Shown here: piece by piece, positions 1 to 57,496 of the stretch | Numbering within the stretch: the stretch's first letter is position 1 | Layout of the letters: every line of letters starts with the position of its first letter | Assembly (NCBI GenBank): GCA_964016885.1 | Contig: OZ024743.1 | Span: 229,586,001-229,650,000 of the forward strand | From: Eledone cirrhosa | Lineage: Eukaryota | DNA length: 64,000 bases | Direction of reading: 5' to 3' | Notes under the pieces: model-generated | Database searches by the model: none | What the model saw: only the letters and a program-made list of their open reading frames with translations | Told to the model about the DNA's origin: nothing | Program-made: the position numbers and the translations under genes

Positions 1-300
1 CAAATATTTTTATAACTGCATTCAACAAATATTTGGAGTAAAAATACGATATTAACAAAGGGAAACTATATTTATAAAACCATATTTATTTCATTATACA
101 TATTCCAAGGACACCAAGTTAAATTATGGTGTGCTTTCATCAGATAAAATATAATATAGATCAGTTTTATAAATAAATATTGACATACCCTTAAAGAATG
201 CAACCATTTCTGTTGGAAGCTCCCGGATAGTGGAGTTGTAGCTTTAATTATATTATTAGTATTGGATATTTTAAAAATAAACCGTTGGGTTAAGGAGAAA
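1..300 (+). mobile_element. Penelope-like RT fragment, inverted copy of 2771-3024; probably continues upstream of the window
   Basis: 44-300 is the reverse complement of ~2771-3024 (ttggaagctcccggatagtggagttgtagct vs agctacaactccactatccgggagcttccaa). That segment lies immediately 5' of the YRDD motif of the minus-strand element. Confidence 0.8.
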
Positions 301-1582
301 GAGAGAGATAGAGAAGGAAAGAGAGAGAAACAACAGAGAGAGAAAGATAGAGAGAGAGAGGAGACAGAGAAAGGAGAGAGAGAACGAAAAACTCTAATTC
401 ATATCTTGTTGAGTTAACTTAACAATTGAGATGAAATGAATAAATAAAGTTAGAAATGTTAATAATCATGAATGGAATATACATATATAATATGAGAAAT
501 TTAACCATTGTTTAAATATGATAAGATTTTTAGTTAATCAGTTAAATATTGAGATCAATATATTAAAAATTGGGATCTATATATTAAGAAATCCATATAT
601 TATTAAAAATCTATATATTATATAACACGTATACACACGCAAAAAGTACATACATATATATATATACACGCTTATAAAAATACATATTACATATCTAACT
701 ACGTATATGATATATACATACAAAATATAAAGGATTCTTTAATTTAATTTAAGATATAGGAATCTTATAAAATGTTACGATTGTTAAGATATTAAAGGAA
801 ATTTTATGTTATACACACTTTATGTTATTAAACAAAATTTTTTATATAAGTTTTAGAAGATTACCTGTTATGTATTTATGGCTTTTATTATATGTCTATT
901 TGTCACGAATCTTGGGATAATCATTATACATAAGTGCAATCGAATTGTATGGATATACACGCACATGTACATATATGTACCCTCACAAATAGGTAGATAC
1001 GCATCACGTATATATATACATAGAGATAGACATACACGCATAAAACATATGTACATGCATGTCAATACACACATATACATATATACACTCATATAGAGAG
1101 AAGTATATATAAATACAGTACATAGTATAATTGAGTACATAAAATACAAAAGAATTATATTACGATTTGGCAATATAATTATAAGCAATATAACTTAAAA
1201 AAAATATAACTTTAAAATATTATAGAATATTTCAAGTTATAATTTCAAAATAATAGTATGTTTAATAGATTTAGTATAGAAATTTTCTACGTATATTTAA
1301 CTTAATTTTATATCCATAAGAGAAATAAACAGAAACTTTGAAAGGATAAACTTTCGAAAATAGGAGAAGCTATCAAACAATAAAAAATAAAAAAATATAA
1401 GAAATATTTTCTCTTTTCAAGAGCCCTCAGTATATATCTCTAGAATAGTTTATTATATTTATTTATATTTAGGAAGAAAAGTTATTTTTACTTGAGTGTA
1501 TAATCAGTCAAAAAAGATGAATGAATCTAATGATTTATCGACAGGTTCAATATATTAATAAAATTAATTAATTAATTATATA

Positions 1583-3020
1583 TTACATTTTAAATTTATA
1601 TTTATATTTAAACCTTGCATTTAATCTATGTCTACAGCAACTGAATAAATTATTCCTTAAGTTCAGGGAATTTTTGGTCTTTAATATAAAGAATATTTCC
1701 TCGATACAAAGATCACAATTTTCTGAAGAGGAGTTAAAAGGAGTAGCTTTTGAAATAATATTCCAAATCAACGAATATTCAACGTTCTTTAGTTTGAGGT
1801 CCCATAATAGGCTAGATAGAGAAGTTGAAGATTTTTTGTTTGGATCTGTAAAATAATTTTTATGATTATTGAAGCGGGATTTAAACTCTGTGGAAGTGGA
1901 TCCCACATAATTAAATGAATTTAAATAAATTTTTACATTACAATTATATACTATATTTTTAGCTAAACAATTGTTATTTAACGAACAGTTAGATTATTTC
2001 TACAGTTACATTTATCAAATTGGATATTGCTTGCGTTATTAGTCGTATTTTGGTTAGGTTTTAAATTTCTATTATTAATTCTATTAATATTTTACGCTAA
2101 ATTTTTGGTGGAAGAAAAAGTTAATTTTATAGTATGCCTATTAAAAATTGAGTAATATTTATGTGTTCTAGGGAAGCATTTGTCAAGAGCTTTAAAAAAT
2201 AGTTTAGCAATAGGGGTTTTAATATTTAATGAGAAAGGAGGAGCGAACCATAATATGTTCCTAGTTCTATTTCTTTTTCCGCTTTCGGAATTAATGTAAG
2301 GTTTCTATTATAGTTGTTAAAATTGTTACCATAGTTAACATTGTTACGATTATGGTTAGTTGTTATATTATTATTATTATCAATGTATTTAATTTTATTT
2401 CTATACCCAGCTCTACCTAACGCTTCGTTGTAATAATGTGCTTTTTCATCAAATATATTCTTATTAGCTGAAATTCTCGAAATTCGTTCCTGTACAGAGT
2501 TCACTATAGTATTTTTAACGGATCTGGGGTGATTAGATTTAAAATTGACGTAGTTTAAGTTCTCATTTAGTTTGTGAAATGGATAATGAAGACATGTGTT
2601 AAGATTTAGTGTTACATCTAGAAAGTTAACTATTTTATGGTTATTCTCTATTTCTACTTTTAGATTAAGGTAATTAAAAAATTGTATAATTTGTTTTCTT
2701 TTTCTATTTAGTTCACAGTTATTATTTTCTATAAGTAAAAGCATGTCGTCACGATATAAACCTCCGGTTATCTTTCTCCGTAACCAAACGGTTTATTTTG
2801 AAAATATCCAATAATATAATTAAAGCTACAACTCCACTATCCGGGAGCTTCCAACAGTAATGGTTGCATTCTTTAAAAGTATGTCAATATTTATTTATAA
2901 AACTGATCTATATTATATTTTATCTCATGAAAGCACACCATAATTTAACTTGGTGTCCTTAAAATATGTAAAATGAAATAAATATGGTTTTATAAATATA
3001 GTTTCCCTTTGTTAATATCG

Positions 3021-3024
<4 letters not shown>
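1583..3024 (-). pseudogene. Degenerate Penelope-like retroelement ORF, family A (RT C-terminus/thumb plus GIY-YIG endonuclease)
   Basis: ORF 2226-2744 follows an LYRDD motif and contains VNFLDVTLNL and YVNFKSNHP. ORF 1583-1906 has GSTSTEFKSRFNNH and CDLCIEE. The frame is broken, and an AT-rich 3' UTR extends toward ~400. Confidence 0.9.
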
Positions 3025-3075
<51 letters not shown>

Positions 3076-3078
<3 letters not shown>

Positions 3079-3453
3079 GTTTGAATTTGTAAAGCCAAAA
3101 CAATGCAGGTATCGACATAGAATAAAAAATGCAAATGCAAAAGATATTGTTGACAATTAGTCTTTTACCTTAGATTTATTTAAATGTCCTTAATTTTCGA
3201 GATACTATCTCTTCTTCGGAGGGAAGTAAAGCGGTTAGACCAATGTTCTAAATAGCTTGCCAAGCATACCAAGCTATTTAGAACACTAGTTTAACCGCTT
3301 TACTTCCCTCCGGAGAAGAGATATTATCTCGAAAATTAAGGACATTTAAATAAATCTAAGGTAAAAGACTAATTGTCAACAATATCTTTTGCATTTGCAT
3401 TTTTTATTCTATGTCCATACCTGCATTGTTTTGGCTTTACAAATTCAAACGTT
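3076..3453. repeat. Long fold-back palindrome (~184-bp arms) with a hammerhead variant in each arm
   Basis: Arms are 3076-3259 and 3270-3453. Right arm reads cct-CCGGAGA-a-GAGATA/TATCTC-GAAA-at-TA-agg; the left arm on the minus strand has a CCGAAGA core. Confidence 0.9.
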
Positions 3454-3508
3454 GTTCTGGTGACTAGGCTCGATGGAGCCTGCTACCTTTGATATACTTT
3501 TGTTTATA

Positions 3509-3555: not shown

Positions 3556-3618
3556 AATAAAACAATGTATTTCTAAGCACTCTTTGGTTATTCCTAAACT
3601 TATATATATATATATATA

Positions 3619-3830
3619 TTGTGTAGGTAGTACGGTAAAATACTGGTGTTGATACCAAATCAAGCACTCTATGCACAGGCAGAGTGTATATAAGGAAGTT
3701 TCGTTTACATAAGAAAAATATTTATTGCTTATCAACCTGTTACGAGCCAATCCTCTGCGAAACACGTGTAACTGGTCGATATTCAATAAATATTTTTCAG
3801 ATGTAAACAAAACTTCCTCGTTTTTTCTAT
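3619..3830. mobile_element. Penelope terminal fragment (family B) folded back at its hammerhead
   Basis: 3619-3745 matches 15873-16010. 3746-3818 is the inverted copy and contains tctgcGAAAcacgtgTAactggt. Confidence 0.8.
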
Positions 3831-3861
3831 TATATATTTATATATATAATATATAAGATCA

Positions 3862-6968: not shown

Positions 6969-7095
6969 TGTAGGAGGTGAGTTTTATTTTAGTACAATAA
7001 AGCAATGCAGATATCGGATAAGTAACACTCTACAGTTTGTAGGACTGGAGTATAAATAATATATAAGATCAAAAAATGGTTAAAAGAGTTCCATG

Positions 7096-7166
7096 TATTT
7101 TATTATGCGCATTTCAAAAACAAATACCATCATGCGATGACATTTGCGTTTTCGTCAGATAAAATA
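7096..7166 (-). ncRNA. Type I hammerhead ribozyme with canonical core
   Basis: Minus strand reads tattttat-CTGACGA-aaacgcaaatgtcatc/gatggtatttgttttt-GAAA-tgcgca-TA-ataaaata: 8-bp stem I, long stem II, palindromic stem III. Confidence 0.9.
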
Positions 7167-8080
7167 GGGAGACATGATATGAAGGTTAAAAAACACTTGT
7201 GAATAGTGCAGTTTAAATCAACATATGAAAAGTAGTTTTAGATTGATGTGTGATATTGGGAGAAAAAAAATGAAAAAAAATGAGGGGTGGGGGGGGGGGT
7301 GGAAAGGATGAAAAAGAGGAGGAGATGAGTGTAAAGAAGAGAGGGGGAGGAGTATAATAAGGATGAGATAGGAGGAGAGATGGGTGATAGCGAGAGAGAG
7401 ATAGCTTTTATAACTGAGAAAAATATATTGTTTTGCAGAGAGAGGTTAAAAAACCGTTGGAAGATAATATATAAATTAAAAGAATTTCGAAATTAACGAA
7501 GAGAAAAATTTAAGAATAATGTTAAATTCAGGTTTGTATATTGAAGTGTTTAATAATATGTGCGATGAAAAGAAATTGTTAATATGTATTAAGAATAATA
7601 TTAAGTTAAGGTTTGAATATTGAAGGGTTTAATAATATGTGCGATGGAAAGAAATTGTTGATATGTATTATTAAAAAAAAAAAAAAATAGTAATGCAATT
7701 AAGGATATAGTGTGAAAAGAAGTAGGAGAGTGGATGAATATGTGTAATATGTAGAAGTTACATGAGCATGAAAGGGAGAAAAAAATACTGAATTGAGGAT
7801 GAACAATCTAACGTAAAAAAAATGTTTATGTTTACGAAGGATTTTTCAAGGTGATACTATAAAGTATTTAAAAGGGTAATAGTAAATTTTATGGCCAGTG
7901 ATAGGATGGAAGAAGGAAGAGTGGATATATTGTGGTGAGTAATAATGAGAATTGAGAAGTATCTAGGAAGAAAAGGTACAAATTAGAGGTTAGAAATTAA
8001 AAGAAAAAAGGAAAAAAAGGAAGAAAGGGAAGTGATAAATACGAGTGTTATAGAATGAGTAACTAGTATTATATAATGTA

Positions 8081-8960
8081 CTAGCAAATGACCCCCGTCC
8101 ATTGGACGGTGTCAGTTCTTGGTAGGGCTGCATATTAATGGTCAATTTCCGTGTTGTATGTTTAACTTGGAGGATAATTTTACCTGATCAACTCTTTCAA
8201 TAAAAAAAATGAGACGGTATTCAAAAAGAGCAAGTTTTATTTACAGATATGTGTCATTAAAATGTGAACATAGAGAAATGTATCGTTAGCCGTGTCGGTT
8301 GAACAATGTGTATTTTAAAACATCCATCATGTACACACACACACAAACACATACACACACAAACATACACACACATACACACAAACACACACACATACAC
8401 ACACACACATACGCACACAATCCCAAGACGTGACGTTGTGGAAGGGGGAGAGCTAAGATGTGTAATAAATAAGTTAAAATTATAAACGCTGTATTTATCA
8501 TATTCGCGTCACACACACTCCTCTCTTTCTTTATTTTACTCTCTCTCTCTCTCACTCCTCTCTTTCTATCTCTCTCTCACACATCCTTCTCTGGCCGTTA
8601 TGGAAATTACACACACACACACACGCACATGCACGCACACATACACACACATATACACACGCACATACACATACAATCCCATAACGTCGTGTTGTGGAAG
8701 AGGGAGAGTTAAGAAGTGTGTAAAAGGAACGCTCTCTCTCTTTATGGCCGTCATGGAATTTGTTAGTGCAAAAGTCTATAAGATTATAAAATCGAAGTTT
8801 GTGACTTCGAAATTAATCATTATGAAATAAACTTTTCTTGATGTTACAAACGGTAGCGTATTTTGGCTATGTGTTTAATTTGACAGAGATGGATAGAATA
8901 TTTTCCAAGTGAAACTCTTTTACACACACACACACAGAACGGGAATTATATATATATAGA
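8081..8960 (-). mobile_element. Non-autonomous Helitron
   Basis: On the minus strand it starts A|TC (8960) and ends CTAG|T (8081), with a subterminal hairpin ccgtcc-att-ggacgg. It has no TSD, carries internal CA/CT repeats and interrupts the Penelope 3' UTR. Confidence 0.82.
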
Positions 8961-9074
8961 TAATAAATAACATTGAAAGAAGGTAGTAAGATGGGTATAT
9001 TTTTAAAGAAATATATATGTATTTATATGTGTGCCTTTGAGAAAAAGGATTTTAAATTGGTAAATTATTAGATA

Positions 9075-11180
9075 TTAGCTGTATACTTTATGGAATGTTC
9101 TGTCGAATTTATGCAAGCCGAGAGAAAACAAGTCAGTGCGTCTATTTACTATATAATCTAAATTAGACATAATGGTAAATTTATCACATAAACAGAGATT
9201 ACATGTCTTGGATAGAGAGGCATTCAAGTATGAAGAAGCAGAACAAACCTTCCTCCAAGAGATGTTATATTTAATGTTTTTGTCTTTCAAGGACCATATG
9301 AGTTCTGAGAGTGCCGTGTTGGTTCTTTTAAGTTGGTATTTAAAATACGAATGATGATTATAAAGACGAGCTTTAAAGGAGGTGGAAGTGGAGCCAAAAT
9401 AGGTAAAGGAATTGGTGTCAGTTATAACTTTACATTCATAGATTAAGTTTTTTTCAAGACAATGGTTGTTGAGAGGACATTTATTTTTAACAGGGCAATT
9501 ACAATTGCGATTAGAGAAATTAACAGAGTTATTAACAAGTGACCTAGTGTTATCTATAGAAGGAATTGGATTGGAGAAGTTATTTACGATAGGAATAATA
9601 GTTTCTTGATTTAGATTGGGATTAAGAACATTTAACGAAGTTGCGTTTGACGTTGTATTTGGGTTTGCAGAAATTAGCCTAGGGTTTACAATGACGTCGG
9701 GAGTACTATTACTATTATTATGATATTCAGTGTTGGAAGGAAGCGATTTAGTATTTAGTATTTTATTGTTGTGTTTAGAGATAATGTTGGAGATGTTGGA
9801 GGAGGTCGAATAGGAAAATGTTATAGTGTGTTTGTTAAATATTTTACTATAGATATGTGAGGGAGGGAAGCATTTATTTAAGGCACTAAAGAATAATTTA
9901 GGAATATTATTATTAATACAGATGGAGAAAGGAGCATTATACCAGATTATCTTTTTGTATCTAGGTCTTTTATTAAAGTTATTGGAATGATCATGATTAA
10001 TTATTCTACTGTAAGATCTTCTAGAATTTGTTTCTTTACTGTATTTGATTTTATCAGGATAACCGGCTTTAGAAAGCGCGTTATTATAGTAATTGGCGTT
10101 AGCATCAAAGATGTTTTTATTAGATGATAGGTTGGATATTCTTTTTCCAATATTACGAACTATAGCATTCTTAATATTAGTGGGGTGGTTAGATTTAAAA
10201 TTAACATAATTTAGATTCTCATTGTTTTTCTGGTAAGGGTAATATAGGCCAGTGTCAAGATTAAGAGATACATCCAAGAAATTAACTAGTTTGATGTTGT
10301 TATCAAATTCAATTTTTAAGTTATGTTGGTTAAAGAGATTACGTATATTGTTCTTAATAATATTAAGGTTAACTATGTTGCAATTTAAGATCTTAAAACG
10401 TCCATCGTCACGATCAATTCCAACGCGAAGTTTAGGAATTTTCAGATTCAAAGAGTTCAAAATAAAGATACCAATTAAATCTGTCAATTGGGATGAATCG
10501 GATGCTCCCATTGTGATGTCAAAGTTGTTAGAGGTATCAGCTCTGGTCCAATATTCATTGTTGAACTCTCGGATGGTTTTACGTGCGGTGAGAATGATGT
10601 GAAGTTCATCTGTGGTGAATATTTGTAAGCGAAAGATAGAGCATTGTTGAGAAGTGAGGGCGAAATAGAAGAATAGTAGCTGGCAATATCAAATTGAATA
10701 AATTTTTGTTTGTTTTTCTTATTCAATTTGTTGAACCAGCCAATCACTTCAGAAGTACCAAACCATAAATTTAAGTTCGAAGTAGAGCAATTAGAACGAA
10801 CCTGTGGGATAATTCTATCCAAGATGGCTTTGCTAACAACCCCAGATCTGATTTAGAGGGGGAGATTGGTCTAACAGGTAGTTCAGTACGAAAGTTGCTT
10901 TTGTGATCCTTGAGATTTTTCCTCGGAGTTCTTGGGAGGAATGGTTCGGTCTTTTTTCCGATGCCAAGTTTTGACATAATCTCAGAAGCTTCAAAGTTTA
11001 CGGATTCTAAATTATCATGGTTGGTTTTGCGATATTGTTTCCTAAGTTCCTTACGGATAAGGTTGTTATAGTTATCCTTAGAAATACCATATAAATTATT
11101 TGTTTTGTCGGAGTTTTGAGGAATTTAGGTTTAAAATTGTGCTCTTGAGATTTACAAGGTGCTCTTGTCCTCTGTAAGGG
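9075..11180 (-). pseudogene. Penelope-like RT plus GIY-YIG endonuclease, frameshifted
   Basis: Motifs: PVRPISPSKS, FIQFDIASYY, MGASDSSQLTDLIG, IDRDDG (YRDD mutated), VNFLDVSLNL, CNC..CPLNNHC, LIYECKV...YFGSTSTSFKARLYNH. Confidence 0.93.
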
Positions 11181-11815
11181 TTTCTCTTGAATTTAAGATT
11201 TTTTAACATAAACATAAACATAAACATAAACATAAACATAAACATAAACATTTTTTTTTACGTTAGATTATTCATCCTCAATTCATTATTTTTTTCTCCC
11301 TTTCATGCTCATCTAACTTCTACATATTACACATATTCATCCACTCTTCTACTTCTTTTCACAATATATCCTTAATTACATTACTATTTTTATATTTTTT
11401 TAATAATACATATTAACAATTTCTTTTCATCGCACATATTATTAAAGCCTTCAATATACAAACCTTAATTTAACATTATTCTTAAATTTTTCTCTTCGTT
11501 AATTTTGAAATTCTTTTAATTTATATATTATCTTCCAACGGTCTTTTAACCTCTCTCTGTAAAACAATATATTTTTCTCAGTTATAAAAGCTATCTCTCT
11601 CTCTCTATCACCCATCTCTCCTCCTATCTCATCTTTATTATACTCCTGCCCTCCATTCTTTACTCTCATCTCCTCCTCTTTTTCATCCTTTCCAAACCAC
11701 CACCCCACCCTCAATTTTTTTTCCAATATCACACATCAATCTAAAACTACTTTTCATATGTTGATTTAAAACTGCACTATTCACAAGTGTTTTTAACCTT
11801 CATATCATGTCTCCC

Positions 11816-11886
11816 TATTTTATCTGACGAAAACGCAAATGTCATCGCATGATGATATTTGTTTTTGAAATGCGCATAATATAATA
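11816..11886 (+). ncRNA. Type I hammerhead ribozyme in the inverted pLTR
   Basis: tattttat-CTGACGA-...-GAAA-tgcgca-TA-atataata; inverted copy of 7096-7166. Confidence 0.88.
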
Positions 11887-11914
11887 CATGGAACTCTTTT
11901 AACCATCTGTTGAT

Positions 11915-11981
<67 letters not shown>

Positions 11982-12235: not shown

Positions 12236-13972
12236 TGATTCTCCTTCTTCTGCTCCTTCCACCCCTCCCTCCAAATCTTTGCCCAGTACACCGGCCCACG
12301 CCCGAACTGTACGGTCGTTACATCGACGACTGTATCGGAGCCACGACCCTCACCAGAGAACAGCTCAACTCATTCTCTACTTCTTCTGCTCCTTCCACCC
12401 CTTCCTCCATTTCACCACCTCTATCTCCAGCACCCACGTCTACTTCTTAGACATCCCCATCGCCTTCGACCCCTCCCACCACTCCCTCGTCACCTCCGCC
12501 CTCTTCAAACCCACCGACTCCTACTCCTACCTCGACTTCACCTACACCCACTAAACACTCTATTCCCTACTCTCAACTCCTCAGGATCCGCCGCCTCTGC
12601 AGCCGAGATGTTGACTTTGAGTCGCAGGCCCTTTCCCTGGTCAACCATTTCATCCGCAGAGGTCCCCCCACCCTCGCCCACACCGCCCTCACTCGCGCCC
12701 GTGCTGTCAACCGCTCCACCACCCTCACCCCACACCACCGCACACCACCCAACGTCTCCCCTTCCCCATCACCTACAATCCCGCCACCCTACCCCTCTCC
12801 GCACCATCCACCGCCTCTTCTGACGCCTCCAGTCCGAACCCTCCACCTCCCACATCTTCCCATCCCCACCACTCTCCTCCTTCAAACGCGCACGCAATCT
12901 CTGCACCCTCCTCGTCCGCAGCTCCCTACCCCCAACCCACGCTCTTATTTTCCCCCCGGTTCCCTTCCCTGTTCCAGGCCTCGTTGCAACACCTGCCCCC
13001 ACATCACCAACAACACCACCTTCCAGGGTTCCAACGGCGACGCTCTCTCTGTCCGGCATGCCTTCCGCTGCACCTCCTCCAGCCTAGCACATGGACTTCG
13101 CTGCACGGAGTGCAGCACAACCTACGTCGGACAGACTGGACGTCGCCTGGCGGACCGTTTCACCGAATACCTCTGGGATATTCGTTTCGGCGGGAGTTCC
13201 CCCATCGCCCGCCAATTTGGTGCCCCTGGACATTCCGCGCACCACCTCACAATCTGTGGCCTACTCCAATGCCACGGAACACCCGCTACCCGCCTCAGGG
13301 TCGAACAACGCACCATCTTCACCCTACAGACCCACATTCCCCCCGGCCTGAACTCCCCACCTCTATTCCTTTAGCCTTCGACCCCCCTGTTCCTCCCCCA
13401 CTCACATATACCCCACTTACATCACTAACACACTCCTCCTTTTCACCCCCCTGTCCCACCCCACAACTAACAATACTAACACCCCCACCCGACCCCGACC
13501 ACCCTCCCCCAACTAACAATACTAACATCCCCCCCTATCACGCACACACACACCGGTACATATATACACGCACTCACACTATCCACACACCACACTACCA
13601 CCACTAACCCTCACCCACACATCCACTCCAACCACCCCACAACTAATACCACTAACTTCCCCCGACCCCACGCATACGAACAACCACACCCACCCACACC
13701 CACTTACACCTCCCACTCTACACCACGCACTCAACATTACCCACTCTACACCACCCACTCTACACCACTCACTCTACATATCCTACCACCACTGACCCCC
13801 GCTAACACACCCGCATTCAACCCTTTCCCCGCCACCAGTATACGAAGACCCACTAACACCCCCTTCACCACACTCACACTCATCCAAACACGCACACACA
13901 CACCAGTACACTACACTCCCTCCAACGTCCCCCACACCTTTTCTTTCCCTCTCCTCGCTCCACTCACACCCC

Positions 13973-15049: not shown

Positions 15050-15867
15050 CTAGCAGCTGAGCCCGGTTGCACCCGGTGCCACTTTTTATTAAGTTAATAA
15101 TTTGAAAAATATTATTGAAAGTTTATTATAAAGAAGCAGTTTCAGGAAAAAAAAATAGAAATATGCACTTGGGGCTGGACGGCGTAAAATGAGAAGTGGA
15201 GCGACGTGAAAAGCATTGTTTATTAACAGCGAAATAGCAATGTCGATGATATGCAATTTGAAAAATACTACTCACTGTTAGTGGTGGTTAACATGTATTA
15301 AAATAAAAACACGCGTCCTTTCTTCGCAATTTAAGGGTTTTATTTTTTTTAATGGAAAACAGTGACCGTACTGCAGAATCGATTTCATAAAACGGTACTG
15401 TATGATCGTTAAATGTAGAAGTATGATAGTTATTAACAGCGAAATAGCAATGTCGATGATATGCAAGTTTAAAAATGAATATTATGAAGGTTTGTATGAT
15501 AGTTTACACTTTTTCCTGAAACTGCTTCTTTATAATAAACTTTCCATAATATTTTTCAAATTATTGGTACTGTATGTTAACAGCGAAAGAACGTTGATGA
15601 GTTTAAAAATTTGTATGAAATTGTAAATAACTCAGCCAAGTATTAGAACAGGAGGAAATAACTCACCGAACGCGATAGTAAATAGACCGTTTGGGGTCCC
15701 TAGGGACCACACTTTTCAGGTTAGCGATTTGAAACCTCGTTTATTTGCTTCCTTGGCACGTTTTACATAGGTGTGTAAATTTTCATGTCCGTCCGACCAC
15801 GTCTACTACCATTTAACAGTGCACATCTGAATTTCAACCACCACCCATTTCACAAATATATATTAGA
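15050..15867 (-). mobile_element. Non-autonomous Helitron, second family
   Basis: Minus strand reads A|TC (15867) to CTAG|T (15050), with hairpin ccgg-ttgcac-ccgg near the 3' end. It contains an internal direct repeat (~15220/15431) and an inverted repeat (~15100-15150/15510-15563). Confidence 0.75.
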
Positions 15868-15872
15868 TATAT

Positions 15873-16245
15873 ATTGCGTGTAGGTAGTACGGAGAAATAC
15901 TGGTGTCGGTACCAAATCAAGCACTCTATGCAGAGGCAGAGTGTATATAATAGAAAAAACGAGTTTCGTGATTACATACGAAAAATATTTATTGCGTATC
16001 GACCTGCTACGCGCGTTTCTCAGAGGATTGGATCAAGGTGACCCATAGGAGTTATGGACCCGACTCCACCATCGATCTGCTCCTCAGACTGGTGATGCGA
16101 CAAGAAATATATTTTTGTTGTGGTATGTGTGCCGAGAAGTTATATTTATAGGCATCGGCCCTATTTTTTTGTGTGTGTGGACGTATGTGTGTATTTTGGT
16201 GTAATTAGTGAGGTAGAAATGCGGGTGTATATATATATATATATA
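15873..16245 (-). mobile_element. Penelope pLTR (family B) with a hammerhead at 16002-16093
   Basis: Minus strand reads accagt-CTGAGGA-gcaga...tctga-GAAA-cgcgcg-TA-gcaggt then aataaa; homologous to 3619-3830 and 18133-18280. Confidence 0.82.
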
Positions 16246-16577
16246 TGGGTGCGGATGCATTCATGTATATATATATGTGTGTCCCCGCATGTATCTGTGT
16301 GTTTCCAAATATATTAATAACTCCCTCTGGTCGAGCAATCTTTGAAGTGTGGGGACAACTGGAAAGCTTCCATTACTCATACTTCTCGCCTTCTTCACTA
16401 CCTCTTCTACGGCCTCGATATGAATACCCCCTCCGCCTCCGTGGTATTTTCTTCGTGGTTATAGGAGGCTTAGCTCTGTTTCTCGACCGTTATATCGCGT
16501 GACTATCTCCCCCTCCGCCTTTTGGGATTCTTTCTCACGTCGTGTAGACGCGTTCTTGAGACTAGTAAAATGAGGTA

Positions 16578-16665
16578 TCCTCTTGATAAGTCGGCAGACC
16601 TCGCAAGGACTCTATATCTTTGATATATTGTTTTTGTTTATGCCACGAAACTACGTAGTCGAGGA
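16578..16665 (+). ncRNA. Type I hammerhead, U3-A8 compensatory variant (unit 1)
   Basis: tcctc-TTGATAA-gt(c)ggca...tgccac-GAAA-ctacgtag-TC-gagga: 5-bp stem I, 6-bp stem II, palindromic ACTACGTAGT stem III, and a GUC cleavage site after 16660. Confidence 0.85.
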
Positions 16666-17172
16666 ATTTAGGAACAGTTTAGGTATGATACATTTTATTA
16701 CTAATTATATCTAAATGTTTCTTCTCTCTTCATAATGTATTTTTAACTCTGATACTGGTTCAGTCTAGTTCAAACTGAATTGGTCTGTCCCAGTCATTCA
16801 TTGAGCAACATCGGTGAAGTTGGCACCCTTAACTCACAGTTGGGTGCTGATGCATTCATGTATATATATATGTGTGTGTCCGCATGTATCTGTGTGTTTC
16901 CAAATATATTAATAACTCCCTCTGGTCGAGCAATCTTTGAAGTGTGGGGACAACTGGAAAGCTTCCATTACTCATACTTCTCGCCTTCTTCACTACCTCT
17001 TCTACGGCCTCGATATGAATACCCCCTCCGCCTCCGTGGTATTTTCTTCGTGGTTATAGGAGGCTTAGCTCTGTTTCTCGACCGTTATATCGCGTGACTA
17101 TCTCCCCCTCCGCCTTTTGGGATTCTTTCTCACGTCGTGTAGACGCGTTCTTGAGACTAGTAAAATGAGGTA

Positions 17173-17260
17173 TCCTCTTGATAAGTCGGCAGACCTCGCA
17201 AGGACTCTATATCTTTGATATATTGTTTTTGTTTATGCCACGAAACTACGTAGTCGAGGA
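17173..17260 (+). ncRNA. Type I hammerhead, U3-A8 variant (unit 2)
   Basis: Same motif as 16578-16665, offset by 595. Confidence 0.85.
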
Positions 17261-17767
17261 ATTTAGGAACAGTTTAGGTACGATACATTTTATTACTAAT
17301 TATATCTAAATGTTTCTTCTCTCTTCATAATGTATTTTTAACTCTGATACTGGTTCAATCTAGTTCAAACTGAATTGGTCTGTCCCAGTCATTCATTGAG
17401 CAACATCGGTGAAGTTGGCACCCTTAACTCACAGTTGGGTGCGGATGCATTCATGTATATATATATGTGTGTGTCCGCATGTATCTGTGTGTTTCCAAAT
17501 ATATTAATAACTCCCTCTGGTCGAGCAATCTTTGAAGTGTGGGGACAACTGGAAAGCTTCCATTACTCATACTTCTCGCCTTCTTCACTACCTCTTCTAC
17601 GGCCTCGATATGAATACCCCCTCCGCCTCCGTGGTATTTTCTTCGTGGTTATAGGAGGCTTAGCTCTGTTTCTCGACCGTTATATCGCGTGACTATCTCC
17701 ACCTCCGCCTTTTGGGATTCTTTCTCACGTCGTGTAGACGCGTTCTTGAGACTAGTAAAATGAGGTA

Positions 17768-17855
17768 TCCTCTTGATAAGTCGGCAGACCTCGCAAGGAC
17801 TCTATATCTTTGATATATTGTTTTTGTTTATGCCACGAAACTACGTAGTCGAGGA
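17768..17855 (+). ncRNA. Type I hammerhead, U3-A8 variant (unit 3)
   Basis: Same motif as 16578-16665, offset by 1190. Confidence 0.85.
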
Positions 17856-18093
17856 ATTTAGGAACAGTTTAGGTATGATACATTTTATTACTAATTATAT
17901 CTAAATGTTTCTTCTCTCTTCATAATGTATTTTTAACTCTGATACTGGTTCAGTCTAGTTCAAACTGAATTGGTCTGTCCCAGTCATTCATTGAGCAACA
18001 TCGGTGAAGTTGGCACCCTTAACTCACAGTTGGGTGCGGATGCATTCATGTATATATATATGTGTGTGTCCGCATGTATCTGTGTGTTTCCAA

Positions 18094-18132
<39 letters not shown>

Positions 18133-18135
<3 letters not shown>

Positions 18136-18280
18136 ATCGGCCTCCATACCACAAAAAAATAATATCTGAGGAGCAGATCAAAACTAGAGTCGGGTCCATA
18201 ACTCACCTTGAGCCAATCCTCTGCGAAACGCGTATAACAGGTCGATACGCAATAAACTTTCTCGTTTATTCTATTATATA
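18133..18280 (+). mobile_element. Inverted family-B pLTR fragment with hammerhead
   Basis: CTGAGGA(18166)-gcaga...tctgc-GAAA-cgcg-TA; reverse complement of ~15943-16140 with deletions. Confidence 0.82.
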
Positions 18281-18420: not shown

Positions 18421-18919
18421 GCATATATATATATATACACACACGCACATACAGACATCACGTATCAGTACATAACACTATCCACTATAGAGTATTCAGA
18501 ATAGTAACATTTTATGTCACTCTGTCTATAGGACAATGGTCTCCATTCAGATATAAATGAAAGCCTACTCATTTTTTTTTTGGCTTTTGTTTCTGCACTT
18601 TGTCTTTTTGATGTGTTTGTTGTTGTTATTGTAGCTATTGTTCTTGTCATTGATATTGTCTTGTATTTTATTGTCAGTAGTCTTTGTGATATTGTTGACG
18701 TCATTGCTGAATCTTCCTTACATGATATATGCACGTTCCATACTTCCCGTATATTGCTTTATTGTTTTGTGTTTTTTAGAAATGGCTGGATGTACTGTTA
18801 AAAAGGATCACTTACAGCCTGTAGTTACTAGTTCGATTCTTCCGTTCGGCGTCCTGGAATCGACACGTCTTTCGTGCTAATCGCGAATTAACAACAACAA
18901 TCTGCCTTTTATAGATAAT

Positions 18920-19103
18920 TGTTTCTACTTTAGGCACAAGGCCAGCAATTACCCAGTGCATTACTGGTACTTTAGTTTATCGACCCCGTAAGGATGAAAG
19001 GCAAAGTCAACCTCGGCGGGATTTGAACTCAGATCGTACAAGGACGTAACTATGCTGGAAAGCATGGCGTCCGACCCTCTACCGATACTGCCAATCTACC
19101 GCC
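18920..19103 (-). mobile_element. tRNA-derived SINE (family 1), full length, with TSD
   Basis: On the minus strand: A box tggcagtatcgg, B box gagttcaaatcc, body tttgcctttcatccttacggggtcgataaa. The direct repeat ttttatagataat flanks both sides. Confidence 0.9.
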
Positions 19104-21214: not shown

Positions 21215-21686
21215 ATCCTGGTTGCACCACATCACCACACTCACCACCAACTGACACAGCCACAACCCAAACTAGCAAAACTAACATCACCAACACCGCT
21301 ACCAAAGTTACCACAACAGCTTCCACCGCATCACCAATCCCCACATTACGACGACCACAATTACAATCACCAAATTCATCACCAGCACAACCATCACCTA
21401 TATAATCACTATCTCAACCACTACTACAACTAGTACCACTACGCCCGCCACCGTTACCAATATCAGTATAATAAATAACTATCACCACTATCTCAACCAC
21501 TACTACAACTAGCACCATCACTCTAACCACCATCCAACAACAACCTTTATCTATAGCAACATCACACCATCATCAGCCTAATTATTACATTTACACCATA
21601 AAAACACTAAATACTATCATAATCACTATCAGTATGTTGTCACATTAACGTCACAAGCAGCACATTATTACACTAACGCACTAAAT

Positions 21687-21865
21687 GTTTCTACTTTTGG
21701 CACAAGGCCAGCAAATTATCGAGTGCATTACTGGTACTTTATTTTATCAACCCCGTAATAATGAAAGACAAAGTTAACCTCGGCGGGATTTTAACTCAGA
21801 ATGGCAAGGGCCGTAACTCTATGCATCAAAACATGGTGTCCGACCCTCTACCGATACTGCCAATC
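21687..21865 (-). mobile_element. SINE family 1 with 16-bp TSD
   Basis: Family-1 body; cactaacgcactaaat at 21671-21686 and 21866-21881. Confidence 0.9.
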
Positions 21866-22712: not shown

Positions 22713-22830
22713 ATGATCTGAGTTCAAATCCCGCCGAGGTTAACTTTGCCTTTCATCCTTACGGGGTCGATAAAATAAAGTACCAGTAATACACTGGGAA
22801 ATTGCTGGCCTTGTGCCTAACGTAGAAACA
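22713..22830 (+). mobile_element. SINE family 1, 5' truncated, with 17-bp TSD
   Basis: gatctgagttcaaatcccgccgagg...; gttatataatatgtata at 22692 and 22831. Confidence 0.9.
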
Positions 22831-24257
22831 GTTATATAATATGTATAGATTAATTTATAATATAATATACAGTAAATGTGACTGAATATATGCTGTTCAG
22901 TCAATTATAAGTTAAGAGATGAGAGTGGTCATTAGATGTAAGTAAGTTTAGATGAGAACGTGGCATGGGCGAATGTTTAAGAAGTTCTCTTCGTAATCAA
23001 TGTTCCGACCCATTGCGTGAGACGGGAACTGTATTGAAGGAAGCCCGTCGTATTGTATGTATCTGTGATTCAAATAGCGAGCTCTGCCGCACAGTGTCAA
23101 CTTGAACCTCCATGTACATGTGGAATGCTTAATCACTTGCACCTTAAATTCCAAAGCAGGCTATTCTGCTGATCAAACAACAGGACCACTCAATTTCGAA
23201 ATTGACGGATGTCCATTCCAAGTTTAGTGACCATATGCATAGAAAGAAATTGGAGTGAAGTTTCAATTTCTATTTTATCATTCATTGTTTTCTTTAAATC
23301 AAATTGTTTTGCAATCATTTTGTACTGAAATACAAACTTTGCCATTAGAAATAACAATATACATTCAATTGTGAACCAACGTAGAAGGAACATAAAATAT
23401 TTAAGAAATAGGCACTATATGCTATAACATGGCCCTGTGTTTACTCCTTGAGCAAGAGAAAGATAGAAGTGGTTGTGGGTGGCATCAGCAAACACTGAGT
23501 TTTATCTATTTAATTGAATAGAATATCCACGTTGCTAGCTAGATTGTATCATTTAAGTATAGGCAGGATTTACCTGGAGTCAGTTGCACGAGCCGGTGGT
23601 TAAATGTCATTTTAAAATGCGAACCGGTATAAAGACTTTAAGCTGCCTGGAATTTCAAGTTAACTTTCAGTAATCTGAAATCGCTACACTGGCTTACTTT
23701 TTTGCATGTATTTTTACTGTACGACAATTTATAATATCAATTTTCGGTGTTAGTATGTTTGCCTTAATATTTTGTGCCGTGATTATGTTTTTGCCATAAA
23801 CATGTTTTATATAAAAAAAAAATTTCTTTGTTTCTCTTTATCGTAACGTTGAATAAGAAATATTAAAGAAAAAAAATGGACAGGAAAATCTAACAAAGAT
23901 CTCTTCATTGAACCTTTAGTTTAGTTCGTAGTTTTCATTTCAGGAACTAAGTGTCTTGTTTATTCTATTATCATTCTCTTGGTTTCTTTTATTAGAATGT
24001 AGCCATGCAGGGTGTATTTATGAATATAGTGGATCATATCGGCAGCAGTACTTATTTTTTCAAGTCTAGCACTTTTTTGTCATCGATCTCTTTTTTGTCA
24101 ATCTGCTAAGTTACGGGAAATAAACACAAACAGACTAAACATAGACATGGAAAACAAATACACGCACGCGCACACACACACACACACACATATACAGACA
24201 CACACATACATACACACACACACACACATGCACACACACGCATACGCATATATATCT

Positions 24258-25189: not shown

Positions 25190-25915
25190 GCATAGTTACG
25201 TCCCTTTACGATCTGAGTTCAAATCCCGCCGAGGTTGACTTTGCCTTTCATCCTTACGGGGTCGATAAAATAAAGTACCAGTAATGCACTGGGTAATTGC
25301 TGGCCTTGTGCCAAAAGTAGAAACAATTATTGTTAATATTATTATTATACACAGGGCGGTGGATTGGCCAGTATCGGTAGAGGGTCGGATGCCATGCTTT
25401 GAAGCATAGAGTTACCTCCCTTTATGATCTGAGTTCAAATCCCTCCGAGGTTAACTTTGCCTTTCATCCTTACAGGGTCGATAGAATAAAGTACCAGTAA
25501 TACACTGGAATAATTGCTGGCCTTGTGCCAAAAGTAGAAACAGTTATTATTATATACGGTGTCGATAAAATAAAGTACCAGTAATGTACTGGATAATTGC
25601 TGGTCTTGTGCCAATAGGAGAAACAATTACTGTTATATACGGTGGATTGTCAATCAGGCACCGTGCTTTTCAACATAGAGTTTAGCTTTGACTTTCATCC
25701 TTACGGGGTCGAGAAATAAAACACCAGTAATGGACTGGAGTAGATTTAATCGACTTTCCCTTCCCACAAAATTGTTGGTCTTGTGGCTCTCTCAGAAATT
25801 ATTATTAATATTGTTCTGAGTTCAAATCCCGCCGAGGTTGACTTTGCCTTTCATCCTTACGGGGTCGATAAAATAAAGTACCAGTAATGCACTGGGTAAT
25901 TGCTGGCCTTGTGCC
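25190..25915 (+). mobile_element. Head-to-tail cluster of five partial or full family-1 SINE copies
   Basis: The gtcgataaaataaagtaccagtaat module recurs at ~25261, 25478, 25561, 25708 and 25864. One copy with its tRNA head starts at ~25354. Confidence 0.9.
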
Positions 25916-25998
25916 AGTGACAAAGAGAAAGAACAATATTAATAATTGCTTCTACTTAGAAGCAATTATTAATATTGTTCTTTCTCTTTGTCACTGGC
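25913..25998. repeat. Perfect palindrome with 42-bp arms and a 2-nt spacer
   Basis: gccagtgacaaagagaaagaacaatattaataattgcttcta-ct-tagaagcaattattaatattgttctttctctttgtcactggc. Confidence 0.95.
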
Positions 25999-27091: not shown

Positions 27092-28856
27092 ATAGGTAAA
27101 TAGGTAGATAGGTAGGAAGGTAGGTACTATGTAGGTAGGTAGGTAGGTAGGTAGAGAGATAGGTAGATAGGTAGGTAGAGAGGTTGGTAGGTAGGTAGGT
27201 AGGTAGGTAAGTAGGTAGGTAGGTAGGTAGGTAGGTAGGTAGGTAGGGAGGTTGGTAGGTAGGTAGGTAGGGAGGTAGGGAGGATGGTAGGTAGGTAGGT
27301 AGGTAGGTAGGTAGGTAGGTAGGTAGGTAGGTAGGGAGGTAGGTAGGGAGGTTGGTAGGTAGGTGGGTAGGGAGGTAGGGAGGATGGTAGGTAGGTAGGT
27401 AGGTAGGGAGGTAGGGAGGATGGTAGGTAGGTTGGTAGGTAGGTAGGTAGGTAGGTAGGTAGGGAGGTTGGTAGGTAGGTAGGTAGGGAGGTAGGGAGGA
27501 TGGTAGGTAGGTAGAAATGTAGGTAGGTAGGTAGAGAGGTAGGTAGATAGGTAGGTAGGGTGGTAGGTAGGTAGGTTGGTAGGTAGGTAGGTAGGTAGAG
27601 AGGTAGGTAGATAGGTAGGTAGGGTGGTTGGTAGGTAGGTAGGTAGGTAGGTAGGGAGGTAGGTAGGTAGGTAGGTTGGTAGGTAGGTAGGTAGGTAGGG
27701 AGATAGGTAGATAGGTAGGTAGGGAGGTTGGTAGGTAGGTAGGTAGGTAGGGAGGTTGGTAGGTAGGTAGGTTGGTAGGTAGGTAGGTAGGTAGGGAGAT
27801 AGGTAGATAGGTAGGTAGGGAGGTTGGTAGGTAGGTAGGTAGGTAGGTAGGTAGGTAGGTTGGTAGGTAGGTAGAAAGGTAGGTAGGTAGGTAGGTAGGT
27901 AGAGAGGTAGGTAGATAGGTAGGTAGGGTGGTTGGTAGGTAGGTAGGTAGAGAGGTAGGTAGATAGGTAGGTAGGGTGGTTGGTAGGTAGGTAGGTAGAG
28001 AGGTAGGTAGATAGGTAGGTAGGGAGGTTGGTAGGTAGGTAGGTAGAGAGGTAGGTAGATAGGTAGGTAGGTAGGGTGGTTGGTAGGTAGAGAGGTAGGT
28101 AGATAGGTAGGTAGGGTGGTTGGTAGGTAGGTAGGTAGGTAGGGAGGTAGGTAGGTAGGTAGAAAGGTAGGCAGGTAGGTAGGTAGAGAGGTAGGTAGAT
28201 AGGTAGGTAGGGAGGTTGGTAGGTAGGTAGGTAGGGAGGGAGGTTGGTAGGTAGGTAGAAAGGTAGAGAGGTAGGTAGGTAGGTAGGTAGAGAGGTAGGT
28301 AGATAGGTAGGTAGGGTGGTTGGTAGGTAGGTAGAAAGGTAGGTAGGTAGGTAGGTAGGTAGGGAGGGAGGTTGGTAGGTAGGTAGGTAGGTAGGGAGGG
28401 AGGTTGGTAGGTAGGTAGATAGGTAGGTAGGTAGGTAGGTAGGTAGAGAGGTAGGTAGATAGGTAGGTAGGTAGAGAGGTAGGTATATAGGTAGGTAGGG
28501 TGGTTGGTAGGTAGGTAGGTAGGTAGGTAGGGAGGTTGGTAGGTAGGTAGATAGGTAGGTAGGTAGGTAGGTAGGTAGGTAGAGAGGTAGGGAGGTTGGT
28601 AGGTAGAGAGGTAGGTAGGTAGGTAGGTAGGTAGAGAGGTAGGTAGATAGGTAGGTAGGTAGAGAGGTAGGTAGATAGGTAGGTTGGGAGGTTGGTAGGT
28701 AGGTAGGTAGGTAGGGAGGTTGGTAGGTAGGTAGATAGGTAGGTAGGTAGGTAGGTAGGTAGGTACAGAGGTAGGTAGGTAGGTAGGTTGGTAGGTAGGT
28801 AGGTAGGTAGAGAGGTAGGTAGGTAGGTAGGTTGGTAGGTAGGTAGGTAGGTAGAT
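27092..28856. repeat. Compound (TAGG)n tetranucleotide satellite, ~1.8 kb
   Basis: TAGG units interspersed with GAGG, TTGG, TAGA and TGGT variants; this explains the three long LPTY ORFs. Confidence 0.97.
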
Positions 28857-34208: not shown

Positions 34209-35689
34209 ATAATAATAAATTTGAAGACTAAAATCCAAAGAGGGCTCGATAAGGATAAATATATATCTAATATATAAGAACCGTAGAGAAAATATTTATT
34301 AAAATAACAGATTAAAGTTTAAGCAAAGAATCGCTGCTTTCACCCTTAACGGGATCTTCTGAAACTAACAAAGTCAATCTGTAAACGCAGAACTGGATAT
34401 TTCAAAAAACGTTGCAACCGGAGGAAGACAGGAAGATGATACTTTGGTTCGTGGAAACGTTCGCTGGCGAAGAACGGGAAAAAACGAATAACACGTCATT
34501 AATAGGAGCGGTGAAAAACATTTACGCGGAAAGACAGAACCACGTTCATGGTATAAAAGAGGTCGTAGACTAATGTTCTCTTAGGTGGTGCATAGAGACG
34601 TTCTCTGGCAATGAACGAAAAAACGAAGATAATACGTCATATGTGGAGCGTGGAGAACAATAGCACGCAAAGACAAAACCACGTAAATGGTATAGCAGAA
34701 GTCGTAGACTAAAATTCTAACTAGGAGACCAAATGAATCTCCGCTACAGAGTTAAGAACAAAGTAAATAAATACAATACAGAAGTAATAAATAAATACAT
34801 ACACGCAATCAAAAACGTACATACACAAGCATACGCAAAACCTTACCATAGGTATACAAAACCACGCACATATAAATATGTGTGTGTGTGTATGCGTGTA
34901 TACAAATAAAAAAACAATTATATAAACGTATATAAATAAATAAATACGTATATAACAAGCGCACACACATACCTACATATAAATACACGAATGTTCGGAG
35001 ACGTAAGTCAACTAAAACAAGAAGTACACATATACACACACCCACCATACGTACGAACCTACATAATCGCACAGACGCAAAAACTTCCGTATACACATAG
35101 CCAAACCCTATGTACCAGAATATATAAAATTATACGCCATAGCAATCAAATATACGTACGAGAAGGTATACGTACCTTCACAAAACATACGGGTAGTATA
35201 TACTTACCTATGCAAATAAGTAAAGGAATAAACAAAACATATACTTAGCTCCCACATCAAGACGTAAAATATCCACGTATAGATCGTACTATCCGTTAGG
35301 GTATAACGTGGGGCTGTAATACAGGAAAGTTTTGTGCAATTTATGTTTATAAGCCGAAATTGCCTCAGACTTTTTGTTTAAGATGTGGTCTGCGGCGTAG
35401 AGTATTTCCAGGGCCTCAGCGGCGCAGAGGTCACATGGTCTTTTATTTCCGTTATACGATCTAGACCTAGCTAGGATCTCCCAGTGTAATTTATATTGGG
35501 TGTGGTTGTCTTTTAGACTCCAGATATAAGCTGAAAGTGACGTCATATTCCTTCTTAGAGGGTAACGAAAAGAATGGGTATGCATGTAAAGACGTAGTTT
35601 AGCTAAATTTGAAGCTGTGATGTTATGTGCAAGGTTAGGAGTCGTAGAGTAAGAAATTTTAATAGTATTTCTATTAAACATTTCTATTA

Positions 35690-35762: not shown

Positions 35763-36045
35763 AAATATGATGTCGTGCCGATTAGATACTAAAATGATTA
35801 AAGATGTTTATCATTATTTTTTTTTTTTCAATTTCCAGAGAAATTGTTATTTTCTGGCATCTTTACATGGCTACATGTTAGATATGTGTATATCGTTGGT
35901 GTAGTCTTGGTTACGCATTTTCTATTTATACAGATATAACTTTATACACGTCGGAAGCTAGCGCATTTCTTTCTATATATCTTAATTAATTATCAACACA
36001 ATCTCTAATTATATTCAAATTTATACGTCCATTTCAGAGTAATAA

Positions 36046-36172
36046 TTGTTTCTACTTTTGGCACAAGGCCAGCAATTATACCAGTGTATTACTGGTACTT
36101 TATTTTATCGACCTGCAAGGATGAAAGGCAAAGTTAAGCTCGGTTGGATTTGAACTCTGTCCGTAAAGGGAC
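36046..36172 (-). mobile_element. SINE family 1, 5' truncated
   Basis: ttgtttctacttttggcacaaggccagc...gatttgaactc. Confidence 0.88.
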
Positions 36173-36187
36173 GTGTAGTTTGATTAG

Positions 36188-36251
36188 ATGATGTACATGT
36201 CTTTTGATGAGGATCCAGTTAAATCCGAAATCGATCAAAGTTGTCCATCAT
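36188..36251 (+). ncRNA. Type I hammerhead with extended stem I and an altered position 3
   Basis: atgatg-t-aca..cttt-TGATGA-ggat..atcc-GAAA-tcga-TC-aaag-t-tgt-c-catcat; palindromic ATCGAT stem III. Confidence 0.78.
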
Positions 36252-36464
36252 TTTTCCAATTTACAGTAAAATTCATATTTTCTGGCTTACGCATATCTAA
36301 ATGACTTCAGATATTTGAATGCATATATTATATACACGTTGGCGCAGTTTCTGTGACAGATTCTGTATTTATACAGATATATCATTATATATGTAACCCT
36401 TCTCTCTCTCTCTCTCTGTATATATTATATATATATATATATACATGTATATAAAAATACATGC

Positions 36465-43467: not shown

Positions 43468-43468
<1 letters not shown>
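40858..43468 (-). mobile_element. Second copy of Penelope family D, with a canonical hammerhead at ~40948-40980
   Basis: Colinear reverse complement of ~12370-15037; CTGAGGA-agggc-ttat-gccc-GAAAcgtc. Confidence 0.9.
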
Positions 43469-43525
<57 letters not shown>

Positions 43526-44064
43526 GTGTGTGTGTACCTACATAATGGTTTATATTTTAACTTTGCATTACACACTTTTCCTTTCTCGTCATCCCATATA
43601 CATCTGCATATCGAGGTTTTAAGCTTTTGTATTTATTTAGTATTTATCGTTATTCTAACTCTTATCTTATATATATTTTTTTATCCTCTCAGACTCTCCC
43701 TCTTTCTTTTTAACATTTATTTATTTATTTATTTATATATTTATTTATTAAATCATTTATTGATTTATTGGAAACAATCCAGAATATTCCTCGACGTTTT
43801 TTGTATGAGTTCTATACTGTACAACAACTACCACACTCATATATACCATATTTTGATTTGTTTTGGGGTCTGTTTTTATTTTCATATTTGGATGTATTTG
43901 TAAATTTAGTTTTGCCTTTGTTTTGTTCTTTATTTATTTGTTTCAGTTATTATTATTTTTTTTTTTTTCATTTCACTTTGCTGAGAGAAAAATGTTTAGG
44001 GTCCACTGGATTCGGAATCCTCTACTGTTCTGTCTTTCTGTTACACATATTGATTGAAGGGACA

Positions 44065-48653: not shown

Positions 48654-48931
48654 ATAACAATAACAATAATAATAATAATGATTTCTTTATTAACCACAAG
48701 GGTTTACATAAAGTAGACATTAAGGACAGTGCAGGACAATACAGGACAGTACAAATGGGCATTTCTGCGTGTAAAAAACAAAAACAGAGGATGTAACAAA
48801 AAAAATAACAATGAAAAATTCCCCAACAGGGGGGAGACTTCGGAGGGACATTTGTGGAGAAAGCCCAGTAAAAGGCCACAGTGACCCTGACCACCAAGGC
48901 AAGTGCCCTCTCCCAGTTTTCCACCTTTAAT

Positions 48932-52313: not shown

Positions 52314-52347
52314 GTTTAAAATAGAGTGGAAAAGATGGGAAAGACCA

Positions 52348-54426: not shown

Positions 54427-54663
54427 GTTTTTTTTTTTCGTTTAAAATAAATATTGGGCACAAATCCCCAACAAGCGCTTATTTAACCCGAAGGGCCAAA
54501 TAACGGGCAGAAAGACCCCTCTCACGAGGAGGAGGGTGTTTTTGTCTACAATTTGGTTAAAGTTTTAAACAATTTACAATTGTTATAGCGGTCAAAATTT
54601 ACAATACCTTACAGAGCCGAGCCTCCGTCAACCATAGCATTTAATAATAATAATAATAATAAT

Positions 54664-54987: not shown

Positions 54988-54988
54988 T

Positions 54989-57222: not shown

Positions 57223-57250
<28 letters not shown>

Positions 57251-57253
<3 letters not shown>

Positions 57254-57490: not shown

Positions 57491-57496
57491 TATTAT

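Follow-up and report, generated by a model that had tools for sequence, protein, structure and literature searches.

The question raised by this locus is what kind of element has placed, in the genome of the octopod Eledone cirrhosa, a short tandem array in which every unit carries a hammerhead ribozyme with an exchanged core pair, and whether the array was copied from RNA or multiplied as DNA. Within the stretch analysed (the window: 64,000 nucleotides of contig OZ024743.1, assembly GCA_964016885.1, positions 229,586,001 to 229,650,000 of the forward strand), self-comparison of the sequence delimits a head-to-tail 595-bp repeat made of three full units and a 70-bp partial fourth:

16228–16246, (TA)n tract adjoining the array on the left
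16247–18101 (+), tandem array
16247–16841 (+), unit 1, with two private letters, both within the TA/TG segment
16842–17436 (+), unit 2, with three private substitutions
17437–18031 (+), unit 3, with one private substitution
18032–18101 (+), partial fourth unit, equal to the 68–70-bp TA/TG-rich segment present at every junction
18094–18131, (TA)n tract adjoining the array on the right

The units differ by 5, 3 and 4 letters in the three pairwise comparisons, with no insertions or deletions (99.2–99.5% identity). A preliminary description had reported three near-identical 595-bp units, each with a U3-A8 hammerhead, which holds for all three (at most five pairwise differences); it had placed the limits at 16246 and 18100, and while the array itself stands, both ends move by one base. 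The array escaped Tandem Repeats Finder, whose maximum period of 500 is too short for it. The unit has a GC content of 41%; neither a long open frame nor a coding remnant was found in it (best tblastn E value 0.036 against 123 PLE-like proteins), no ORF with RT and GIY-YIG was found in or adjoining the array, and no LTR-type organisation was seen (PBS and PPT lay outside this search). Apart from microsatellite-like scraps, no further copies of the unit were found within the 64-kb window.

The array is probably a non-autonomous, (TA)n-targeting hammerhead element that originated from a Penelope-like terminal repeat (pLTR) and counts, broadly speaking, as a non-LTR retrozyme.

The hammerhead motif and its predicted folding

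The earlier likening of the array to a retrozyme tandem is borne out by its three non-coding units, all of which contain a complete type I hammerhead, the three ribozymes being identical:

16578–16665 (+), type I hammerhead 1, U3-A8 core at 16583–16589, predicted cut after 16660
17173–17260 (+), type I hammerhead 2, predicted cut after 17255
17768–17855 (+), type I hammerhead 3, predicted cut after 17850

In the first of these, stem I consists of 5 bp (TCCTC, 16578–82, paired with GAGGA, 16661–65), the core TTGATAA (16583–89) supplies U3, U4, G5, A6, U7, A8 and A9, and stem II (GT(C)GGCA, 16590–96, with TGCCAC, 16641–46) has 6 bp and one bulged C, is closed by G10.1-C11.1 and is extended by a long hairpin. 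GAAA (16647–50) supplies G12, A13 and A14, the 10-nt palindrome ACTACGTAGT (16650–59) constitutes stem III, and the cut-site triplet is GUC with C17 at 16660. Everything that a type I core requires is thus present, i.e., positions 3–9 and 12–14, the A15.1-U16.1 pair, an NUH site and a Watson-Crick pair between positions 3 and 8. Both core deviations sit at the paired positions 3 and 8, exactly where they had been reported, and motif mapping reproduced the three proposed cut positions to the base. In hammerheads generally, exchange of C3-G8 for U3-A8 restores activity. Pairing of C3 with G8 in the hammerhead core has been confirmed (PMC3884650), and the exchange is no surprise, being already published for minimal hammerheads of Penelope elements (PMC4209133).

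When the unit was dinucleotide-shuffled 20,000 times, only 4 of the resulting sequences matched the hammerhead descriptor, which for this purpose admits five core types, and 60 block-shuffled windows yielded 0.067 matches per window, none equal in quality to the array motif; in the real window the descriptor also matched at 7158(−) and, weakly, at 30649(−). The Rfam hammerhead models gave no match to the motif at the gathering score and none among the 39 E-value matches, and the canonical-core motifs at 7158 and 11824 likewise fall below that score. A chance or dead look-alike within an ordinary satellite would agree with this lack of Rfam support and with a motif predicted to be off in its sequence context, but it is scarcely credible given the rarity of matches among shuffles, the placement of both deviations at paired core positions and the fact that, among the best-supported 40 of 111 differences in one sequencing run (X1, discussed below), four lie within the unit (16399, 16456, 16464 and 16674) and none inside the ribozyme. 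The U3-A8 hammerhead motif is confirmed as real and non-random.

Minimal hammerheads have been described in the pLTRs of Penelope-like elements (Cervera & de la Pena 2014, PMC4209133), and the array motif resembles them in being of type I with a 4–5-bp stem I, a long stem II and G10.1-C11.1. In the same paper the U3-A8 covariant accounts for approximately 1,300 matches in Schistosoma mansoni, in Cercyon elements, with which the array shares both the palindromic stem III and the core, and the Penelope hammerhead of D. virilis combines a palindromic stem III with a bulged stem II like that of the array. The S. mansoni motifs are, in the available text, heterogeneous and mostly single, whereas the array has three identical motifs, with a palindrome of 10 nt, in a tandem that is non-coding and has no ORF beside it (PMC4209133). 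The ribozyme is of the Penelope terminal-repeat type and not of the canonical type found in validated circRNA-producing retrozymes. The accessible parts of PMC7151607 and PMC6155905 contain nothing on a U3-A8 core. For the giant squid, 235 Rfam hammerheads have been reported (PMC6962438); a high-copy family such as the present one escapes Rfam and descriptors limited to C3-G8.

It had also been stated that all three stems pair. For the isolated motif this is correct, all three helices being able to form with a predicted active fold 1.1 kcal/mol above the minimum, but stem III in the monomer is a mere 3-bp hairpin (predicted +1.5 kcal/mol, pairing probability < 0.1). As a duplex between two motifs, stem III is predicted at −12.9 kcal/mol, and the double hammerhead is predicted to be 10.7 kcal/mol better than two monomers, in agreement with the earlier suggestion that the palindrome favours dimers, yet still 7.6 kcal/mol above the minimum. 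Once at least 40 upstream bases are included, the predicted pairing probability of stem I is 0.02 or less, and in context, as treated by an equilibrium model only, the active monomer fold is predicted to lie 4–8 kcal/mol above the minimum, with a similar result for the circle. The 5′ strand of stem I is predicted to be captured by an upstream GAGG hairpin and the 3′ strand by a downstream one:

16661–16740 (+), hairpin sequestering the 3′ strand of stem I (z −3.8), which terminates at the frequent (TA)n junction
16741–16841 (+), structured 3′ extension (z −3.5), with approximately 40–50% of the body depth in X1

Folding of the monomer has a z of −5.8; without the TA segment, the plus strand scores −4.9 against shuffles and the minus strand +0.1, and 2 of 12 control windows fold comparably on one strand (z −4.5 and −6.2). 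These models predict that stem I is blocked in the native transcript context, and cleavage would be expected to be weak and biased towards the dimer, because the flanking hairpins compete for both stem I strands. Low, dimer-dependent cleavage is also reported for minimal Penelope hammerheads (PMC4209133), and in vitro cleavage was obtained for one of nine Xenopus retrozyme dimers (bioRxiv 10.64898/2026.07.22.740005).

Copies of the unit in sequencing runs

Sequence words of the unit are present in 20 of the 24 listed runs, no RNA run being among the listed holders, and the comparison rests on X1, X11, X15 and X22. From X1, 3,324 contig pieces could be aligned over 15650–16841 (left flank and unit), of which 716 have an identity of 99% or more, 783 of 95–99%, 1,045 of 90–95% and 780 of less than 90%, which supports a dispersed multi-copy family. 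The unit is a member of a deep, diverse and dispersed family and not a one-off sequence, because X1 holds many diverse copies ending in (TA)n. Summed word depth in X1 is 1.3–5.5 × 10^5 across the unit (single contigs 5–9) and 0.3–2.3 × 10^4 over most left-flank repeats. Summed depth does not equal copy number, and X1 has no recorded library type; should the run be genomic, division of the depth by 7.3 and by up to 31 (contig overlap) would give a family of approximately 6 × 10^2 to 7 × 10^4 copies, as rough bounds.

The depth profile, which is distorted by contig fragmentation and excludes 16217–16290 (a repeat) and hence the junction TA/TG segment, has a recognisable body:

16314–16740 (+), family body in X1, with loose ends joined to (TA)n on both sides

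The loose ends joined to (TA)n comprise two contigs before 16314 and seven after 16740 (9 of 337 rows). Depth rises from the 5′ side to a peak at 16690–16729 and then amounts to 1.8–2.6 × 10^5 over the extension, while successive bins across 16570–16729 (446k, 333k, 393k and 548k) contain no downward step at the cut site. The profile suggests plus-sense reverse transcription primed at AU-rich sites on templates intact across the cut site, either uncut or circular.

At 16464 all three units have G, a letter that makes up 0.6% of X1 depth against 99.4% for A; the three units descend from one template, because all of them carry this rare G. Of the X1 variants within the unit, 16674 and 16456 fit a pair in the predicted structure, and 16464 and 16399 are ambiguous; the best-supported 40 of 111 differences thus yielded mixed support for the structure and no covariation in the stems. 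The shared letter also bears on the possibility that the element is real and the trimer an assembly artefact made from one or two copies. No listed contig covers even one unit plus flank, and high-copy repeats flanked by microsatellites assemble poorly, but each unit has private differences, the junctions are in exact register and the rare letter contradicts a collapse of family reads, making such an artefact very improbable.

X11 and X15 contributed 10 and 2 low-depth pieces, respectively, from which nothing is inferred about their organisms. One X11 piece (record 14) spans the 5′ strand of stem I and the core, with its sole other letter at 16464, another (record 15) continues a diverged form of the 3′ extension, and one from X15 (record 16) has a single difference from the unit. 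X22 consists of raw reads; with 0 pieces aligned it provides no test of presence. The exact 23-base motif pattern had no matches in metagenome, viral and prokaryote collections. A gapped pattern admitting either C3-G8 or U3-A8 matched two metagenome loci and no prokaryote, and these two loci, without stem I and without likeness to the unit, were dropped as chance.

Origin of the trimer among Penelope-type ends

The array is flanked on both sides by repeats of another family, here called family B, which form an inverted pair with the CTGAGGA cores facing outward:

15960–16150 (−), left flank, decayed family B repeat, canonical CTGAGGA core at 16081–16087
18132–18275 (+), right flank, inverted family B partner, approximately 80% alike, core at 18166–18172

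The right copy has lost the 5′ strand of stem I through a 19-bp deletion. The flanks could also be taken for the inverted termini that bound a DNA transposon; this reading was rejected, because both arms hold outward-pointing hammerhead cores that resemble the neighbouring Penelope termini. The family B copies (15857–16150(−), 18122–18275(+) and 3601–3836) are short, bear hammerheads, have (TA)n ends and are deep in X1; a CACTCT..AGAGTG hairpin occurs both in their one-sided extension and in that of the element at 6990–7060.

Approximately 5 kb from the array lies a Penelope-like ORF (9075–10688(−)) with 126 homologues, many of approximately 700 aa, in which RT-like and C-terminal GIY-YIG-like motifs were recognised by inspection; a Pfam scan named none of the three Penelope-like ORFs of the window and none of four homologues. 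On either side of this ORF lie inverted termini that end in (TA)n and contain hammerheads of canonical core, at 7158(−) and 11824(+), the whole forming a decayed Penelope-like element (6990–11920) with an extension of approximately 75 bp at one end only. Judged by its flanks and these neighbouring termini, the array lies among Penelope-type ends in TA tracts. A tendency of Penelope-like elements to insert into or beside earlier copies has been reviewed (PMC6765202).

A pLTR-type hammerhead, microsatellite-bounded ends and a tandem insertion, which mark a Penelope terminus, are all found here; the RT and GIY-YIG ORF between pLTRs that marks an autonomous Penelope-like element is not. Within the 64-kb window, no RT/EN-coding element was found whose pLTR is homologous to the unit, nor any mobilising element that ends in a matching terminus. 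The units could also be 5′-truncated pLTRs of an autonomous Penelope-like element arranged head-to-tail, with the hammerhead serving the parent transcript. The ribozyme is indeed of pLTR type, depth declines towards the 5′ side as truncation would have it, and partial tandems are the rule for Penelope-like elements. This is nevertheless distinctly unlikely: the same truncation base would be needed in all three units, the loose ends before 16314 are TA-rich and not coding (among the same 9 of 337 rows), and no ORF remnant is present within 264 bases upstream of the ribozyme.

The origin of the trimer depends on the nature of the 70-bp TA/TG segment, as part of the element or as a duplicated target. 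In the latter case, which is close to the local triplication that the preliminary description had allowed for, a monomer of approximately 525 bp would have inserted with a duplicated TA/TG target of approximately 70 bp, and unequal crossover or slippage would then have produced the trimer at the DNA level; a 595-nt RNA would be incidental, and the unit would still belong to a dispersed Penelope-type family. The array amounts to a whole number n of units and one 70-bp segment with nothing left over, this segment resembles host microsatellite DNA, the overlap at the left junction is 1 base only, the X1 loose ends mark a family boundary at 16314 beside (TA)n and the rare letter common to the units fits equally well, all in keeping with such an origin. 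Against it, a 14–15-bp hairpin crosses the junction between body and segment, which is only suggestive since equally good pairing occurs in 391 of 3,867 random flanks and in 9 of the 138 flanks that follow (TA)n; the hairpin at the left junction (z −7.4) is mostly (TA)n. A derivation of the segment from one arm of an older palindrome of the host was rejected, since for the non-TA part 104 of 135 controls did equally well. Taken together, we regard multiplication at the DNA level as rather unlikely and favour RNA-templated insertion of a multimer as the source of the trimer: the array meets (TA)n at both of its ends, a target duplication of 70 bp would be a long one, and multimers are usual in this class.

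For a Penelope-derived retrozyme the following route can be envisaged. Internal or read-through transcription would give a multimeric plus-strand RNA, in which two hammerheads may join by pairing of their palindromic stem III (10 bp) and cut, inefficiently, after GUC; by analogy with the retrozymes of PMC7229834, an RtcB-type ligase of the host may then close the monomers into circles. Supplied in trans, a Penelope RT/GIY-YIG protein would nick (TA)n and prime at an AU-rich site of the RNA, copying would pass the intact cut site on an uncut or circular template, and more than one round of copying would leave a young 3.1-mer in a TA tract beside older Penelope-type ends. A circle-templated model for Penelope tandems has been proposed previously (PMC4209133).

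Non-LTR retrozymes derived from Penelope pLTRs have been described with units of 51–972 bp and at most seven units in 75% of families (Li, Clavereau & Pollet 2026, bioRxiv 10.64898/2026.07.22.740005). The array resembles them in its two or more consecutive non-coding units with complete type I hammerheads, its length, its few repeats and the co-occurrence of Penelope elements, a likeness that is one of structure. That survey covers 35 species (vertebrates, insects and coral) and, in the available text, includes no mollusc and makes no mention of the U3-A8 cores that the array has. The narrower description of 2020 concerns coral, mussel and axolotl, with circles of 170–400 nt (Cervera & de la Pena 2020, PMC7229834), so that the unit length, previously called longer than typical, is outside this range but inside that of 51–972 bp (bioRxiv 10.64898/2026.07.22.740005), and the array agrees with the structural definition of 2026 and departs from the description of 2020 in size and ribozyme type. 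With the retrozymes of 2020 it has in common tandem non-coding units, a GC content below 45–50%, self-paired RNA and high copy number, and its palindromic dimer bias recalls the dimer-dependent cleavage of some of them (PMC7229834). In the accessible text, however, these have mostly canonical hammerheads, are predicted to fold freely and were shown to cleave and circularise, whereas the array, at 595 nt and with a pLTR-type variant core, is predicted to be blocked. EN+ Penelope-like elements have a microsatellite bias, tails and tandem or inverted insertions (Craig et al. 2021, PMC8557442); the array is like them in its (TA)n-bounded ends, the extension past one frequent end, the head-to-tail copies and the inverted termini nearby, and unlike them in that the unit lacks an RT/EN ORF and has an extension of approximately 100 bp compared with a tail of 30–40 bp.

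Neither the U3-A8 exchange nor the length of 595 bp is new, because both are published for Penelope elements or the retrozymes derived from them, and every ingredient has already been described. A literature search, conducted outside subscription papers, repeat libraries and supplements, found neither this family nor any cephalopod retrozyme described. Hammerhead retrozyme-like elements are thus extended to an octopod, with the known picture unchanged. The trimer, young, near-perfect and with the same ribozyme in all three units, lends itself to two questions that the literature leaves open: do Penelope-type hammerheads cleave in vivo, and are circular templates the source of Penelope tandems? 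More tentatively, the array may represent an active U3-A8 retrozyme family of thousands of copies, repressed by hairpins except as a dimer, whose abundant 595-nt circRNA is copied by a Penelope RT, in more than one turn of the circle, into (TA)n. If this possibility, which we hold to be doubtful, were true, it would provide the first cephalopod circRNA of such a type in the literature searched and a natural setting in which to test, in vivo, both the U3-A8 core and the formation of Penelope tandems from circular templates.

Other repeats of the window

The window as a whole is animal DNA rich in repeats. A hammerhead-like motif with a U3-G8 core and a palindromic ATCGAT lies at 36198–36242(+); downstream of it, 36251–36389 has a 69% direct copy at 35823–35946, and a Penelope-like coding scrap is situated nearby (35343–35600(−)). 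Inverted repeats of 94% identity that end in (TA)n (43–302 and 2771–3024) frame Penelope-like ORF scraps (1999–2762(−)), and no intact hammerhead was found in this fragment (43–3024). A different Penelope-like family is represented by two fragments, at 12375–13371(+) and 42487–43556(−), which are related to one another and, more remotely, to the ORF at 9075.

A degenerate (TAGG)n array of 1.76 kb extends over 27093–28854. A cluster of LINE remnants (45156–63978) includes an RT frame (45815–47998) and several inverted copies of another LINE family; a LINE-like frame at 58140–59582 has its only named animal homologues in Argonauta hians at 57–59% identity (2 of 9 matches, the remainder being unnamed or carrying a bacterial label), and a homologue search with 62391–63200 gave no matches. 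A near-perfect palindrome of approximately 380 bp, seen by eye at 3075–3455, adjoins a (TA)n tract. A SINE-like repeat of approximately 135 bp, which presumably resembles an Octopus SINE, is represented by at least 10 copies or pieces that are 81–91% alike:

18915–19047, 21682–21797, 22720–22835, 25198–25916, 36040–36174 and 57247–57492, locations of the SINE-like repeat
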